From the NCBI GenBank assembly GCA_026026165.1, contig JAPEUD010000008.1, positions 124,001 through 188,000 on the forward strand: 64,000 nucleotides of DNA, given 5' to 3'. The DNA comes from Sarea resinae (lineage: Eukaryota). Position numbers and translations under genes: made by a program. The notes below the pieces were generated by a model, which did not search any database, had not been told where the DNA came from, and worked only from the letters and a program-made list of their open reading frames with translations. This document shows positions 22,732 through 32,175 of the stretch, piece by piece. Every line of letters begins with the position of its first letter. The first letter of the stretch is position 1.

Positions 22732-25700
22732 ATGGCAGCGGCTCAGCAGACCGGTCTGCTCGATCTGGAGAAAGAGTTGACGTGCTCTGTAAGCTTCCCT
22801 CTCAAAGCGCGCCTTCGTTTGCCGGCATCTGAGCTGTATGCAAACGAGAGGAGCTGCAGACTCCAGCTTCCTAAGACATGCAGAGAAATGCCTGTTGAAA
22901 AAACCAAGATGCTAATGTTCCGCAGATCTGCACCGAAGTACTCTACCAACCCCTCACCCTCCTCGACTGCCTCCATACGTTCTGCGGCTCTTGCTTGAAA
23001 GAGTGGTTCAGCTGGCAGGGCGAACACTCCTCCAGCAGACATCCGTACACTTGCCCATCATGTCGCGCATCCGTGCGAGAGACCAGGCCGGATGCCAAAG
23101 TGACGACGCTTCTGGACATGTTCCTACAGGCGAACCCAGGAAGAGGGAAGAGTGAAGAGGAGAAGGAGGAGATCAAAGTCAAGTACACACCTGGAGAAAA
23201 TGTGGTGCCGAGGATCGAACATCGAAGAAGATCATCCTCGCGATCAGACAGGGAGGATAGGAGGCTTATAGAGGAGGTTAGGGAATTGAGCTTGAGGGAT
23301 GTGGAGGCAAATTCCGCGGGTCCTCGCGACAATACACTACGAGTCGCTGGGATTCGTGAATCGAGGGAATCAGAGAACCAACGGCGGCGAAGGAATCATG
23401 AGTCTCGTCATCGGCATAGGAACAGCAGTCATCTTTCTTCAACAAGTCGAGGCGACGAGGCCAGCAGAAGCCCTTCACGGCAAAGGTCGCGGAGCCGTCA
23501 AGTAGGGCATCAATCCAGTCTCCGGTCTCTTCTGAGCACCGATCTGGATTCGGAAGAGACTGTTGAGGAGATTATGCGCCAGATTTCCGAGGAGGGCCTT
23601 TTGGATGGCATTGACTTTAGCAATCTCGATGGTGCACAAGAGGACGAGCTCAGCGAGAAAATCGCGGAGGCGTATCGACGACGGCATCCTCGGCCGTCTA
23701 CACGGACAGGTGAAAGCCAGAGCGACTCAGGCGAATCCCGTCCGAGGTCTCGAAGACGGGAAGAGGAGCAGCCAAGGCAAAGACATCATGCAAGATCACA
23801 CAGCGCTGCTATCCAGCCGAGTCAGCCTCGTCAACCATCTGCGTCTCGCACGCATTTGCTTCCCGAAGAACCGGGGACTCGTGCCCGTCGACAGAGAGCC
23901 TCGAGCGACGTTCGCCGTCAGCACTCTCCGCCACCCAGTGCGCTCGGAACCACGTCCAATACTGGTAGAGCCGCAGCGCGCTCTGCGACAGACCTCTCTG
24001 ACAGGCCTCAGTCGTCTCATGCGCAACATTCCAGAAGCCAGAGGCCAACAGACCGTAATCGCAGCACCACCGACCCCGAGAACAGAAGTGTGCGTGGATT
24101 GTGGCAAGGAGGCCCTCTATTTCCGAGAGCGACGGGAAATTCATCCCCTAGATCTAGTACCCCATCTACGAATGATCGTCCTCCGGCCAGGTCATCACCT
24201 ACCATGGCGTCTCCGCAAGTCACTGAAAACCAAGAAACAGTTCCAACTTCTACTCACACGCCACCTCCTGGTCTAGCCTCCGGGGCTGGCTCGCTCGTTC
24301 CTCCGACATCGTCAAACGACACACAGACATCAAATTCGAGACCTTCATCTTCATCGTCCGCCGCTCGCCCTCGTGCAGTCCTATACCCCGAACCGTCGAT
24401 CTCGTGCAGCCGCTGCAACAAAGCCCACATCGAATACGAACTGCACGAAAACTGCGACAAATGCAACGACGGCAATTACAATCTCTGTCTACGATGCTAC
24501 CGTCTCGGCAAAGGCTGTCTGCACTGGTACGGCTTTGGCTACGCGGCATGGGCACGTTATGAACGGCAGGCGCCCGCGGGAGGGTATCCGGCCGATCATG
24601 CGGTCCCCCACACCCTGACGGGGCAGCGCTATCTCCGACCGAAACAGGGTGCTCTGCAGCCTGCACCTGGCGACGATGGGCGATCACTGACCAGTGAAGA
24701 TGCGTCGAAAAGACTCCAGAGGGGCGTCTTCTGCGCCATCTGTCTCGCGTTTGCAAATCCCTGTTTCTGGAAATGCGACCTCTGCAACGAGGGCGAATGG
24801 GGCTTTTGCAACTCCTGCGTCGCTCAGGGGCGGTGTTGTACGCATCCTCTACTGCCCCTGACGCACAGGTCTAGTCCAAGGCCGCCTCGTCTCGAAACAC
24901 AACAGCAGCAGCAACAACAACAGCAACAACAAATACAACAGCCACCATCATCCTTCTCTCCCAATTTTCCACAAGACAGCCCGACCAAAGCGTCGCCCAC
25001 CGCAGCTCTACTGCCTCCCGGCACCGACATCGGACTCCCAAGCAGCAGAAGCCTCCCAGGCACCTTCATCCCACTAACCTTCCGCACCAAATGCGACATC
25101 TGCAAATACCCGATCCAGCCATCGACGACGCGCTTCCACTGCCCGCAATGCACCGGCGGCGACTACGACATCTGTACGCCGTGCTACCACAAGCTGGTGC
25201 TGTCGGGCCGGATCAGCGGCGAGAACGGGCACCGCGGCTGGCGGCGCTGTCTGGCGGGCCATCGCATGGTGGTGGTCGGGTTCGAGGACCGCGGCGCCGG
25301 CCAGAGGCGAGTCGTCGTGCGCGACCTGGTGGGCGGAACCACGCTCAAGGACGAAGGCGAGGCCTCCGCCGCCACCGCCACCGCCGCCGCGCCTGGTGGT
25401 GGTGGTAGTGGTAGTGGCGACGACAGGGACGCCGGCAACACCGCCAAGGCTTTCTCGTCCACCTGGACGTGGCAGGATGGGCCGGGCGGCGAGAAGAAAT
25501 CCAGGAGTATTGGCGGTGGTGGTGGTGGTGGTGGTGGTGCCGTTTCGCAGTCTCCCACCACGACCACCACCACCAGCAACACACGAAAACCCTTCTTCCC
25601 GCCCGACGGCGGCGTCGGCATGCGCGTCGTCGCGCTGTGGAGCTACTACCCGGCGCCCGGCGTGGCCGACGAACTGATGTTCCCCAAGGGCGCCGAGGTG

Positions 25701-25796
25701 CGCGAGGTCGAGGACATCAACGGCGATTGGTTCTGGGGCGCGTACGCGGGCGCCAAGGGCTTGTTTCCCGGGGGGTATGTGCGGGTGATTGGATAA
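22732..25796 (+). CDS. RING-finger (CHFR-like) putative E3 ligase with ZZ-type zinc fingers and C-terminal SH3 domain
   Basis: Exon 22732-22788, intron, exon 22926-25796: DLEKELTCS/ICTEVLYQPLTLLDCLHTFCGSC..CPSCR (RING); CSRC..CDKC..YNLCLRC and CDIC..FHCPQC..YDICTPC (ZZ-like); ALWSYYP..DELMFPKGAEV..WFWG..GLFPGGYV (SH3). Confidence 0.9.
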
Positions 25797-25929: not shown

Positions 25930-25983
25930 AAGGAAAGAAGGAAGGAAGGAAGGAAGGAAGGAAGGAAGGAAGGAAGGAAGGAA
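25930..25983 (+). repeat. (GGAA)n microsatellite
   Basis: Run of ggaa units between the convergent 3' ends of two genes. Confidence 0.9.
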
Positions 25984-26159
25984 GAGCGAAATGAAGAGGA
26001 CCAGCCTGTTACAGCGTGTCAGGAATTGAATGTTTTGTTAGCTACAGAAACAAAAAAAGAAATACCGCTCAATACTGATTGAGACAGTCTCTATTCCAAA
26101 ATATCCCAAAGAGATTGTTGTTCGTGACCAATACAGATAGATGCCCAATGCTTGGCGGT

Positions 26160-29100
26160 TCAGCACGCCCAATGACAATCCATCTGCCGATTCTGTATTG
26201 ATCGAAAATTAGCATCTCAGTCTCTCTATCCGAAGTTTGACAACGGTGGCAGTGGAAGAAGTTGTGGGTTTCAAGGGGGAGAAGAGAAGAAAATAAAAAT
26301 AAACTTGACTTACAGCTGAATGCTGGTCGGCGCCCAGCGACGTCGCGCTATCGAGCCAATCCCAGAAATTGCCATTGTCCCATCCGCCGACGGAGCAGTA
26401 CGGCAGGCGGGACGAATCCGTATCCGTGTCATCCCACTCGGTCGAGCCGGCCGTCAGGGTGAGGACCCAATCTTCCCAGTTGATCTGGGGCGGCGGGGGC
26501 GCGACCATTCTGCCACGGAAGCGGCGGCTGCTGCTGCTTGTGGGAATGGTGGTGCGGTTGAGGAAGTCGACGGAGAGGTCGTAGGGGAGGTGGGAGTCAG
26601 AGGCGGCGACCGAGGCGCTGTCGCCCCAGTGGAGCTGGTAGTTTTGGCTGGCGAGCAGCGCGTTGGCGCCGTCGGTGATGTTGAGCTGCACGTACAGCGG
26701 CTCGTTGTAGCTGAGCGAGGCCTCGAAGATGTGCAGATCGCACGTGCCGGTGGCGTAGGCGGGCGGGGGCGACGAGGTGCTGACGGCGATGCGCGTCGTG
26801 GTGCCGACTTCGCACGTGTACGTGGTGGCCTTGTCCGGGCCCACGGTCGTGCCCACGCCGGCCTGCCACCCGTCATTGCATGCACATGCGATGGTGGCGG
26901 GGACGTTGATGTCGCCGGTGCTGAGAGCCGCCTGGCTGGTTAGAGCACAGGAGGTTATTGGTGGCACTGTAGTGCTGACGGCTATACGTGTGGTTGTGCC
27001 GACCTCGCAGGTGTACGTGGTTGCCTTGTCAGGGCCAACCGTCGTCCCCACGCCGGCCTGCCAACCGTCATTGCATGCACATGCGATGGTGGCTGGAATG
27101 TTGATATCGCCGGTGCTGAGAGCCGCTTGGCTAGTCAAAGTACAAGAGCTAATCGGCGGAGATGAAGTTATGCTGTAGGTGGAGGACGCCGTGGAAGTTA
27201 CGCTATGGCCGGAGGACGAGGCAGCACTGGGGGATATAGATGATAGCGGCGAAGACGAGCCTGTGGCCTTTGTTGTTTTTATGAGCATAGTACTCGTCGA
27301 GGATGGCCCGGAGCCCGAGCTTGTCGAAGCCTTTGTTGCTGAATTGGTGGTACTCGAGATCTGGGTGCTATTTGCGCTGGGCGATGATGACGAGCTTCCA
27401 GTGGATGCCCCATTCGAGCTCGAAGAAGTCTTGGAGGCGCCGGATGAAGTGGCGGAACTGCTAGAGCTAGAACCGGTGGAATTACTGGTGTAGCCGCTGC
27501 ATGGGTTTGCGTAGCCAACGTCTCGCTGCTGAATAGTGCCCGTGGGTGGTGTAGTGTGCGGAAGCCAGAAGTCTTGGTACGTGATCAGTTGATCCTCTAC
27601 CCACAACCGCCATCGACCGATTTGAAGGCCGGGAGAGGTCGGATCCACACCAGACGCAGTCGTTGTGAGCCAGCTCTGGAACGGGTCAACTTCCAAGATG
27701 GCTCTACCGGCAGTGCCAGGGTTCTGGGTTGACGCTTGTGCGCTGGTACGCGTGTAGCCCAAGGTAAAGCCGGTACCACCTGAACCAGGCAGGATTCCGG
27801 CTATCTTGTTCGCGAGATCCTGAGCGCGCGCTTGATACCTCAGCGTAGTGGTGATTTGGAAGTTATTTCGATCAAAGTCGGTTGTGCGCGGAGTGAGGAC
27901 AAAGACTTTGGGGCTGTAGATAGCGTTCAAGACTCCAGGCTGGGCGTCGGTTCCTATGAGGGAGGTAATACTTAGAGCATTTGCTGTGCCATCGCGGAGA
28001 GAATTGAACGCTTTAGTCGTAAAAGAAGCGTCGTCGGTTGAAGCCCAAGTACTGTCAATGAAGACAGGGTTCTCCCAGATGTGAGAGAGATACACACCCT
28101 TCTCGGATGAGATGATCACGGCCGTGCACCCGTAAATGCCATTGACACCTACAGCTGCGTGACCAAAGATTGGATAGTCGTACCAGTGTCCAGACGCATC
28201 TCCTTGTTGACTGACCCAGGTAGCCCCTTGACTCAAACCTCTGACGTAGTTGGTGTAAGGAGGAGTGACGTCCGGAAGAGCGCGTTCAAACAAGGGGTTA
28301 GAAATATCCCCCAGAGTTTCATTGGAATCCGTTGGATCACTGGAAAATCCTCTCTTGGAAGGGGCATTGGTGGAGTCAGTCGGGCTTGCAACCGCAATGG
28401 TCCCAGCGACTCCGTAGCTAGCGGTTGGCAGAGCAGAGGTCGTACTCGTTGAGATCAGCGAACAGTCTTCAGTAGTAGCTATGATCCCCATGCTGGCGCC
28501 ACTGAGAGGACCTCCACCCAGGGGACATGCGCCCCCACAAGTATCAGAAGCACATGGTGTCTGAGTTGCGCTTGACGACGCCGAACTAGAGACAGTCGTT
28601 GTCGTTCCGGTGACAGAGCAGCCGCTGGTCGTGACCGTGGTTGTGGGCGAGCAAGTCGTGGTTGAAACCGTGGAACCGCCGGTCGTATATGTGGTAGGTA
28701 TACATAGAACAGTGACTCTCAATGCTGTTTGCGTGGATGTGCACGAGGAGGATGAGCTCGTTCCAGAACTGCTTCCGGTGCTCTTTGACGTGCCCGTTGA
28801 TGTTTTAGAGTTCGTGTTGCTACTCGAATTGTTGTCGTCGCCGTCGTCAGTGAGATCATCGTTCTCTGATGTTAAGTCGTCCAAAGTGCTTTCAACGCCC
28901 TCGGTATCATCGGCATTGACACTGTCCGTGATGTTGTCCAAATCCTCGTCGATGCAAGACAATGAACTTACGACGTCGCTGATAGGGCCCAGCAGACCCC
29001 TCTTCTTCTTCTTCGAACCACATGGTTTAGACGACGAATCACTGCCCAGATCGGAGATGAGATCTTCCACGTCGCTTTTGATACTTTTGACTTTGTTTAG

Positions 29101-29973
29101 AGTGTCTGTCTTGAGCGGTGTCGGGCTTGCCTTCCAAGAATTGATGACAGGTATCAGGCCTACAATCTGGGAGGACACTGAAGATACAGCAGACGTTGCT
29201 TGAGAGCTGGCAATAGTCGTTGTAGCTGCTGGAAGAGTAATTGGTGACGAGAGTCCTCCGCCAGTAATGATGGGCTCTCTGACGGTTGTGCCAGATTCCA
29301 CAATGATGGAAGTGATGATGCCTAATGTGACGCTGGGAATAGCTGAAGTGCTGTTGCTGCTACCAATAGCCGTCGAGGATGACCCTGAAGAGGAAGAGGG
29401 CCTTGGCGAGCTTCCCGTTCCAGCCGATGAGCTAGCCAATATTGGAGAGGAAGATAATCTTGATGAGCTCCCTGTCCCAGTTGATGACGAGGTGGACGAA
29501 TTTGAAAATCTTGCGGTGGATGGGAGGCTGATGCTCGATGAGGAGACTGCCGTGCTGTTGGTGCCTTGAATGCTATTGCTAGTGCTGGGAGGTAGGTTTG
29601 TACTTGACGAAGAGGGTGTGCTGGATGTGATAGGCGCAGAGTTGGAACAAGCCTTGCCGGGGACAATAACGACAGAGCCTCCCTGCTTGACAGCAGACAT
29701 GACACAGCCATCTGAAAGAGTGTAAGTAGCCGCTGTGGTGTTTCCTCCCAGGCTAATCGTTTTGCTTGAGTCGACTACAATACCGGCGCCGTTTGGAAGG
29801 ATAGACAAGGGCTCTGCATCATACGTAGTCGCGGTAGAGACGGGCAAGGTAAAATTGGAGTAGTATACACTACTACTGCTCGATATGGCAGCTGCAGATG
29901 CATATCGGGCAATCGAAGACAGGACGAAAAGCGCTCTTCCGGTTGATGCGGGCCAGCCGCCATGGTACCGCAT
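26160..29973 (-). CDS. Large secreted Ser/Thr-rich multidomain protein with putative CNF1/CheD-like Cys-His domain, two Cys-rich repeats and a C-terminal Cys/Trp domain
   Basis: Exon 29973-26314, GT-AG intron 26313-26193, last exon 26192-26160 (NRQMDCHWAC*); ~1230 aa. Signal-peptide-like N-terminus (ALFVLSSIARYASA|AAI); dibasic sites KKKKR, SKR; motif VGVNGIYGCTAVIISSEKGVYLSHIWE. The gene model is well supported, the function is not. Confidence 0.8.
26772..27160 (-). repeat. Two tandem 195-nt (65-aa) coding repeats
   Basis: PPI(S/T)SC(T/A)LTSQAALSTGDIN(I/V)PATIACACNDGWQAGVGTTVGPDKATTYTCEVGTTTRIAVST occurs twice; identical nucleotide anchors are 195 nt apart (26878 and 27073). Confidence 0.95.
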
Positions 29974-31020: not shown

Positions 31021-31118
31021 ATGGCCGACTCTAGCACGCTGTCGCGCCAACAGCAGCTTCAACAGCAGATGATGATGACCGCGCGCCAGCAGCAGATGCA
31101 GATGATGGCTGCCCGCCA

Positions 31119-31149
<31 letters not shown>

Positions 31150-32175
31150 CAACAACAAAACGCAGCAGCCAGCGGCAACAGCCATGGCATTACTCCGTCT
31201 CAGCCTCTATCGAGCACCATGGGCTCAGCGTATGACGACCTCCCCATCATGGACCCCACCGACCTGGGCTTTATCGGCCAAAAGCCGGCCTCGTTGGAAT
31301 CCTTCGAATCCGCCTGCCGGACAGGCCCCGTTTCCACCGTCCAGTCCATCATCTCGTCCGAGACCCGCACCCCCTCCTATCTCCACCATGGCCTCACCCT
31401 CGCCCTCAGCGCCGGCAATGTCGAGGTCGCCCGCTACCTCCTCTCGGCTGGCGCGCCTATCGTGCGCCTAACCCCAACCAGCATCCTCTCGGCGCCGTCG
31501 GACCAGCAACTCGCCCTCTTCGAGCTCCTCACCCACCACCGCTGGACCCCCAATACCCCGGGCTACTACGGAGCCGTCCTGCTCCCCAGCGTCGTCACGA
31601 ATTCCCATCTCCTTGGCTGGTTCCTCGCCCACGGCGCCAACCCCAACCTCGGCGCGCAGCGCGATCATCGTGACCGTATGGGCGGGCCCGACACGGACTC
31701 GTGCGCTGCTCTCGAGTTGGCCGCAGGCGGCGCAGACGTCGAGGCCGTGCGCATGCTCCTCGACGCCGGCGCCGAGATCCGGAACGGGTCACCGTTGCAC
31801 TTTGCCGCGGGCGCGTGTCCGCCCGGCATGAATCCACACGCCGGTCGTGTGACGCCGAGTAGGGAGTTTGACGAGGGCAGGATTCCCGTCATGGCACTGC
31901 TGGTGGAGCGCGGCGCCGATGTGAATCAGGCAGAGGTGTCACGGCATATGGTGGCGCGGTATGCCATTGTGCATGCGGTGATGGCAGGGGCGGTAGAGAG
32001 GGTGAGGTGGTTGTTAGAGCGGGGGGCGAATCCAGAGGCGAGAGGGGCATGGGGCAGTGCCGTCGAGTACGCAAGGACAATGGGAAGTGAGGAGATGAGA
32101 AGGATATTAGAAGAGGGGGTGACGACGAGGAGGTGGATCAATGATAATGTCACCGAGACAGAACGAACGCAATAA
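31021..32175 (+). CDS. Ankyrin-repeat protein with N-terminal poly-Gln
   Basis: Intronless 384-aa ORF; LALSAGNVEVARYLLSAGA, WFLAHGANPN, ALELAAGGADVEAVRMLLDAGA, SPLHFAAG, LLVERGADVN, AVMAGAVERVRWLLERGANP; CAG/CAA run at ~31117-31158. Confidence 0.9.

Follow-up and report, generated by a model that had tools for sequence, protein, structure and literature searches.

The window analysed here is a 64,000-nucleotide stretch of the Sarea resinae contig JAPEUD010000008.1 (positions 124,001 to 188,000), and its element of interest is a gene on the minus strand that encodes a 1230-residue, Ser/Thr-rich modular protein, predicted to be secreted. The joined translations of its two exons correspond to P0185, "MAG: hypothetical protein M1819_006678 [Sarea resinae]"; the unspliced frame in the list of open reading frames (ORFs), 26209-29973, comprises 1254 codons. 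Residues 562-818 of this protein form a domain that belongs to an uncurated family of Pezizomycotina fungi, and, on the evidence of the predicted structure, that family is a new secreted fungal one inside the known CNF1/YfiH-like cysteine-hydrolase superfamily. The gene model, the domain and its key residues are as follows:

26160..29973, minus strand: whole gene
29973-26314, minus strand: exon 1, 1220 residues
26313-26193, minus strand: intron of 121 nucleotides, GT..AG, read in the 3' end sequence
26192-26160, minus strand: exon 2, 10 residues plus stop
27520..28290, minus strand: Cys-His domain, residues 562-818, a CNF1/YfiH-like alpha/beta/beta sandwich as predicted by the model and fold searches
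28126..28128, minus strand: Cys616 (C55 of the domain), just before strand 56-61, proposed nucleophile from its conservation
28081..28083, minus strand: His631 (H70 of the domain), near the end of strand 65-71, proposed general base from its conservation and DSSP analysis of the model
28072..28074, minus strand: Glu634 (E73 of the domain), candidate third or structural residue from its conservation

An earlier note on this DNA had described a Cys and a His codon 15 residues apart within a globular segment flanked by Ser/Thr-rich linkers, and the description is accurate: codon 28128-28126 specifies residue 616 and codon 28083-28081 residue 631; positions 27520-28290 of the minus strand translate without a stop into 257 residues (P0001) that include the motif; and 225 of these 257 residues are modelled with a predicted local distance difference test score (pLDDT) of 90 or above, between flanks whose Ser plus Thr fraction is 0.4-0.6 per 50-residue block. 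A Cys and a His 15 residues apart are a trivial occurrence by chance; the signal lies in their conservation together with the fold match. Conservation was counted with a profile built from the matches, which re-extracted 208 domain rows from 183 proteins, each column being scored over the rows that have a residue there. The conservation of the pair among fungal homologs, which the note had advised checking, is well supported: C55 is kept in 182/188 copies and H70 in 182/193, and they are accompanied by E73 (185/191), by G54 directly before the Cys (184/188, 98%), and by T56 (172/188), S62 (176/192), G65 (183/193), P75 (171/187) and F77 (179/191). E73, three residues past the His, is a candidate third residue. 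Since 77 of the 143 near-full domains hold exactly one Cys (45 hold two and one has none), the conserved Cys is usually unpaired within the domain. Moreover, H70 is the only His column to reach 85% conservation, which makes a zinc site of the YfiH type unlikely.

The AlphaFold2 model of the domain, built from a 68-sequence alignment, has a mean pLDDT of 93.8 and a predicted template modelling score (pTM) of 0.90, and the strands associated with C55 and H70 are, by DSSP of the model, the two arms of one hairpin. The fold suggested in the earlier note, for which a comparison with CNF1, BLF1, CheD and YfiH had been advised, was recovered by both search methods. With Foldseek against the PDB, the top five entries are the catalytic domains of CNFy and CNF1 (E 4.1e-5 to 3.8e-4, probability 0.97-1.00), headed by CNFy 6yhm (E 4.1e-5, probability 1.00) and including CNF1 1hzg/1hq0 (E 2e-4); NTAN1, BLF1, YfiH and CheD come next in the list. 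A VIA-align run against 48,161 representative chains, independent of Foldseek, places CheD at rank 1 (Z 8.3, 147 residues aligned, root-mean-square deviation (rmsd) 4.2), followed by NTAN1 (Z 7.2), CNF1 (7.1) and BLF1 (7.0) at ranks 2-4 and by CNFy (6.9 and 6.6), YlmD (6.2) and YfiH (5.7) at ranks 5-8, with unrelated folds (B30.2, OmpA-like) starting at Z 5.3. In a second look, confined to Foldseek's top 1000 chains, this one superfamily accounts for all of the best 26 entries (Z 8.0-5.2), after which Z falls to 3.8; the deamidase branch (Z 6.6-8.0) covers model residues ~1-240, and the YfiH branch (Z 5.2-6.2) covers residues 7-204. The fold assignment carries weight because two independent methods converge on one small superfamily, with a clear gap below it. 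The entry directly under that gap, and the first without a superfamily label, is residues 932-1122 of the Mcf toxin (PDB 8p52, Z 3.8), which might hide a related domain. For NTAN1, the aligned ranges (model 11-233 against chain 35-193) bring C75 and H92 to within 2-4 residues of C55 and H70 by range offset, which lends weak support to the equivalence of the pairs. Autocleavage at the Gly-Cys step in the style of Ntn-hydrolases was weighed and discarded: Foldseek listed just one entry of that kind, GlmS, at rank 46 (E 0.85).

Members of the superfamily fold as an alpha-beta-beta sandwich in which Cys and His are strictly conserved and the third residue varies: it is Ser69 in NTAN1 (triad C75/H92/S69), Thr in CheD (C27/H44/T21) and BLF1, and a backbone carbonyl in CNF1 (PMC7022378). 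The pair C866/H881, which the earlier note gave for CNF1, is the one stated for both CNFY and CNF1 in PMC7883292, and BLF1 uses C94/H106 with an oxyanion hole formed from the main-chain amides at and just before the Cys (PMC8960835). The Cys-to-His spacing of 15 in the fungal protein equals that of CNF1/CNFY, as opposed to 17 in NTAN1, 17 in CheD (all 23 of the 23 CheD sequences extracted from genomes have G-S-C followed by His at +17) and 12 in BLF1.

The resemblance to CNF1 and CNFY thus extends from the best Foldseek matches, and VIA Z scores of 6.6-7.1 over model residues 1-240, to the spacing and to the lack of a Ser/Thr third residue, the fungal family having Val six residues before the Cys. 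However, there is no detectable sequence similarity, and CNF1/CNFY are bacterial AB toxins, whereas the fungal protein has a probable signal peptide. CheD (PF03975) gives the highest VIA Z scores (8.3 and 8.0, with 141-147 residues aligned), and its Cys likewise starts a strand, with the His on the next; it differs, nevertheless, in having the His at Cys+17 and a Thr before the Cys, and profile-profile similarity is absent. CheD is, moreover, a cytoplasmic protein of bacteria or archaea. NTAN1 (protein N-terminal asparagine amidohydrolase) is the eukaryotic member of the fold (Z 7.1-7.4), but it is intracellular, has a Cys/His/Ser triad and an appended C-terminal region that selects N-terminal Asn (PMC7022378), and shows no sequence similarity to the fungal domain. 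BLF1 (Burkholderia lethal factor 1; Z 7.0-7.7) is a Cys-His deamidase whose main-chain-amide oxyanion hole fits the highly conserved Gly before the Cys of the fungal family, although it differs in spacing and sequence and is a bacterial toxin of eIF4A. YfiH, PgeF and YlmD (DUF152) belong to the same superfamily (Z 5.2-6.2), but score lower over a shorter coverage, and the zinc site with an additional His described for YfiH (PMC7022378) has no matching conserved column in the fungal family.

A word-indexed search found 39 relatives of 141-450 residues, and an exhaustive search of representative sequences found 246 clusters at E ≤ 1e-3, 114 at ≤ 1e-10 and 55 at ≤ 1e-30. Every match that bears a source name is a hypothetical or unnamed protein of a Pezizomycotina fungus, the named genera being Penicillium, Aspergillus, Fusarium, Zasmidium, Viridothelium, Trypethelium, Sclerophora, Dendryphion and Sarea; a protein atlas returned only unnamed Ascomycota clusters (scores 0.93 and 0.92). 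A pattern scan of prokaryotic genomes yielded 24 stretches, none of which was confirmed by tblastn, this being a weak negative that draws on two peptide patterns only. Among 40 long homologs scanned against Pfam, seven end in MU117 (PF15474) and 31 contain no Pfam family, the remaining two being P0040, with Peptidase_S8, and P0105, with a sub-threshold DUF2457. P0040 was dropped as a candidate protease fusion: it matches profile positions 105-210 only, with the Cys-His part missing, and its source is a 6.5-kb contig. The seven MU117-ending orthologs (P0043, P0048, P0053, P0056, P0058, P0063 and P0068) keep the same N-terminal architecture as the window protein, and a 2025 paper places a PF15474-bearing cluster among KP4-like killer-protein folds (PMC12382754). 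Two or three tandem Cys-His domains occur in Aspergillus and Zasmidium proteins of 1420-2638 residues; such tandem-copy proteins are P0066, P0070, P0123, P0128, P0046 and P0105, with KR sites between some of the copies. Copies are also found in short proteins, which have nothing to release. The domains of these large secreted Ser/Thr-rich proteins are shuffled among them.

Processing of the precursor was assessed from the basic sites and the Cys residues that flank the domain:

28351..28356, minus strand: K540-R541, 21 residues upstream of the domain and its only nearby canonical dibasic site, seen in the sequence
28282..28284, minus strand: Arg564 (E563-R564), N-terminal domain edge, ER before ALPD; KR or RR here in many homologs
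27523..27525, minus strand: Arg817 (Q816-R817), C-terminal domain edge, QR before D; KR or RR here in many homologs
28462-28464 and 27499-27501, minus strand: Cys504 and Cys825, flanking Cys of the window protein, at positions of family-wide enrichment

The basic sites lie where the earlier note had placed them, K540-R541 (before Gly) upstream of the domain, E563-R564 before A-L-P-D and Q816-R817 before Asp; the first alone is a canonical dibasic Kex2 site. In the whole protein, [KR]R occurs three times, starting at residues 324, 540 and 1150. Across the family, windows of 18 residues at the N-terminal edge and 22 residues at the C-terminal edge were compared with random windows from the same proteins: [KR]R is present at the N-terminal edge in 53/128 copies (41% versus a background of 9%) and at the C-terminal edge in 56/123 (46% versus 11%), and at both edges in 18 of the 80 copies testable at both. 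In many of the other copies a lone Arg occupies the corresponding aligned position (ER, DR, GR or QR), as it does in the window protein. The Kex2-like release that the note had envisaged is supported in part, at the level of the family; in this protein KR lies 21 residues upstream of the domain, and both immediate edges are monobasic. Cys residues are enriched 20-90 residues before the domain (82/88 versus a background of 55%) and within ~24 residues after it (75/101 versus 27%); one might speculate that a disulfide joining the flanks would hold what remains of the precursor together, were the domain to be excised. The arrangement recalls the Kex2-processed KEPs and killer preprotoxins, which are secreted precursors with units flanked by KR or RR, and the tandem copies in some members of the Cys-His family add to the likeness. 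The units of KEPs are, however, short peptides rather than 250-residue enzyme-like domains, and the window protein has just one canonical site near its domain.

The remaining parts of the protein are:

29893..29973, minus strand: probable signal peptide, about residues 1-27, ending Y-A-S-A, from the sequence and the orthologs P0048 and P0056
28999..29013, minus strand: K321-R325, polybasic site KKKKR before G in the conserved helical N-terminal region, also in P0048, P0056, P0186 and P0187
27160..27498, minus strand: Ser/Thr-rich linker, residues 826-938, after Cys825, from the Ser plus Thr fraction
26770..27159, minus strand: two tandem 65-residue modules with four Cys each, residues 939-1068, near-identical copies
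26314..26760 and 26160-26192, minus strand: C-terminal beta-rich domain, residues 1072-1220 plus the last 10 in exon 2 (to 1230), from homologs and a model

From the N-terminus, a signal-peptide-like start is followed by Ser plus Thr blocks, the helical segment with its polybasic site, a Thr/Cys-rich stretch and K540-R541, after which come the Cys-His domain, the Ser/Thr linker, the two four-Cys modules and the C-terminal domain. The protein is probably secreted, to judge from an N-terminus in which a hydrophobic core precedes Y-A-S-A, as it does in P0048 and P0056; a hydrophobic C-terminus of the glycosylphosphatidylinositol (GPI) type is absent from the 1230 residues. In P0187-P0190, too, the four-Cys module stands ahead of the C-terminal domain. 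The latter is found again in 23 small proteins and, beyond the window's own, in five long proteins, of which P0187 alone also has the Cys-His domain; three Lachnellula proteins among the five have a different N-terminal part, and P0188 matches Aspzincin_M35 at 25.1 bits, below the cut-off of 30. MU117 was not detected at this C-terminus, either as a Pfam match at E ≤ 1 or as BLASTP similarity to P0048 (best E 2.0). The model of the C-terminal domain has a pLDDT of 67.5, and neither Foldseek (best E 0.09) nor VIA-align gave a clear fold match or a recognised wall-binding fold: the best VIA match is FAIM-NTD (Z 5.8), and the fungal beta-barrel proteins Alt a 1, Tsp1 and PevD1 score Z 3.4-3.6.

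Among the five sequencing runs listed, one possible source DNA run contains the stretch, and two RNA or RNA-guessed runs contain small shares of it. A CTTC/CCTT microsatellite run lies at ~25935-26000, just past the stop codon of the gene. The neighbouring ORFs, both on the plus strand, encode an 892-residue low-complexity protein with a ZZ zinc finger (23118-25796) and a 384-residue ankyrin-repeat protein with a poly-Gln N-terminus (31021-32175), and give no functional hint.

The domain is probably that of a secreted CNF1-like Cys-His amidohydrolase, which would deamidate or transglutaminate its substrate via a thioester on Cys616 and which kexin may expose or release. The precursor would enter the secretory pathway via its signal peptide, and the Ser/Thr linkers would be glycosylated; kexin-type cleavage after K540-R541, and possibly after the single Arg residues at the edges, would then expose or free the domain. 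The unpaired thiol of Cys616, activated by His631 on the neighbouring strand of the hairpin, would attack a carboxamide or amide carbonyl, most likely in the side chain of a Gln or Asn residue within a protein or peptide; by analogy with the superfamily, either water (deamidation) or an amine (transglutamination) would then resolve the resulting thioester. The 'deamidase toxin' function of the earlier note is an inference, and the antagonistic, toxin-like role is the weaker part of this proposal.

A number of observations weigh against a CNF1-like amidohydrolase, and they concern its processing, its active site and its relationship to known proteins. Both edges of the domain are monobasic in this protein, and the stretch from the domain to the C-terminal linker is devoid of dibasic sites. 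Fourteen domain rows lack the Cys or the His, and all 14 retain E73: the Cys is replaced by Ser in three and by Tyr in three, and in the rest the His is replaced by Asn, Tyr, Arg, Ile or Trp. Such copies, for example P0121, P0136, P0162, P0113 and P0120, may be pseudoenzymes or Ser-nucleophile variants. At position 49, six residues ahead of the Cys, 135/186 copies have Val and 23/186 have Ile, and the Ser/Thr seen in NTAN1, CheD and BLF1 is absent; since CNF1 also lacks Ser/Thr there and uses a backbone carbonyl, this residue is not superfamily-defining. A thiol enzyme is, moreover, uncommon in an oxidising extracellular setting. No translocation module was identified in the fungal protein, and none of the receptor-binding or translocation domains of CNF was recognised. 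The Foldseek TM-scores are low (0.29-0.34, with rmsd values of 9-11), and VIA Z scores of 7-8 are, by the tool's own note, middling when taken alone. Sequence-level searches failed to make the connection: Pfam returned no family for the ORF or the domain and, over 68 members, no shared family, only unrelated single-member matches; phmmer and profile searches of the PDB with the domain gave no match at E ≤ 10; and hhalign of the family profile against the 23 CheD sequences, global and local, gave probabilities of at most 0.2%. A missing sequence-level link is, however, usual for this superfamily, because NTAN1 is likewise without sequence similarity to its other members (PMC7022378). Finally, the two RNA or RNA-guessed runs contribute one short contig each (27083-27228 and 26919-27106), neither over the domain or the intron; both fall in the Cys-rich repeat modules and are uninformative on expression or splicing.

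The same fold and chemistry could instead serve a housekeeping purpose, with a wall-associated or extracellular enzyme on a glycosylated Ser/Thr stalk deamidating the fungus's own wall or matrix proteins, or cross-linking them in the manner of a transglutaminase, instead of acting against other organisms; we regard this as unlikely. Long Ser/Thr-rich stretches of this kind characterise wall or mucin-like proteins, no dibasic site follows the domain here to allow its clean excision, and the family is spread broadly, and in a vertical-looking manner, across the classes of the Pezizomycotina. The C-terminal cassette is also common to proteins with another enzyme-like N-terminal part (P0188, with its sub-threshold Aspzincin_M35 match), which fits an enzyme joined to an anchoring or binding module, and enzymes of the CNF family can transglutaminate (PMC11253639). 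Set against this, the protein has no GPI-type C-terminus and its C-terminal domain has no recognised wall-binding fold, whereas the variable C-terminal domains and tandem arrays resemble a conflict system more closely. Module shuffling, tandem arrays and KP4-like partners lean towards antagonism, whereas the mucin-like stalks, the distribution and, in this protein, the want of a clean cleavage site on the C-terminal side lean towards a housekeeping role outside the cell.

The other explanations are less likely than a CNF1-like amidohydrolase. Cysteine protease domains release modules in large bacterial toxins, and the Cys-His domain could be a self-processing peptidase that cuts its own precursor at the conserved Arg edges, freeing the neighbouring modules. 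Conserved Arg residues do mark both edges, including sites that are not dibasic (ER before ALP, Q-x-R before D), the C-terminal modules differ among orthologs, the Cys-His pair of BLF1 is mechanistically like that of cysteine proteases (PMC8960835), and YfiH hydrolyses the amide link in UDP-MurNAc-amino acids. Nonetheless, the fold-search lists contain no backbone peptidase among the superfamily members, the dibasic enrichment points to an ordinary Golgi kexin, and the domain also occurs in the short proteins; such an activity seems decidedly improbable. More improbable again is a non-catalytic binding or structural domain that retains the old fold, its conserved Cys acting as a disulfide or redox anchor. 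The persistence of 14 among ~190 copies without the Cys or the His, with E73 kept, would suit it, as would the partner Cys available shortly after the domain; yet G54-C55-T56, H70 and E73 are jointly conserved at 91-98%, in the pattern of an active site, and the Cys and the His match the catalytic pair of the superfamily in sequence order and hairpin position. An extracellular small-molecule enzyme like YfiH/PgeF, acting on nucleosides or bacterial peptidoglycan fragments, is very improbable indeed: YfiH, YlmD and PgeF are among the structural matches (Z 6.2-5.2), but they score below the deamidase branch over model residues 7-204 only, and there is no second conserved His for the zinc site described in YfiH (PMC7022378).

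Going beyond the enzyme itself, it is possible, albeit doubtful, that the family is a counterpart in filamentous ascomycetes of the bacterial polymorphic toxins. Large glycosylated secreted precursors would combine, exchange and duplicate toxin modules that lie between kexin sites, and among the recurrent modules would be a CNF1-type deamidase or transglutaminase, often beside a KP4-like killer domain. If so, this would be the first secreted eukaryotic branch of CNF1-like deamidase toxins, for fungus-fungus, fungus-bacterium or fungus-host conflict.

In the literature, the CNF1-like fold is known in bacteria from the toxins CNF1/CNFY and BLF1 and from CheD and YfiH, and in multicellular eukaryotes from NTAN1, which is intracellular (PMC7022378 and PMC8960835). 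Fold and chemistry are, therefore, already known, and what appears to be undescribed is a secreted, modular fungal family of this fold, absent from Pfam. Full-text searches found no description of such a family, their scope being the articles themselves and not the supplements of secretome-structure papers, which could list it; the main text of PMC9816061 mentions neither deamidase, CNF, CheD, amidohydrolase nor necrotizing factor. A conserved, secreted family that extends throughout the Pezizomycotina with an intact Cys-His pair would give the fold an extracellular branch in eukaryotes. The 246 representative clusters, which include proteins of Penicillium, Aspergillus and Fusarium, would gain a hypothesis of function, namely Cys-dependent deamidation or transglutamination. 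Moreover, the kexin-type flanks, the tandem copies and the exchangeable C-terminal domains, one of them KP4-like, tie the family to questions of fungal antagonism and precursor processing.

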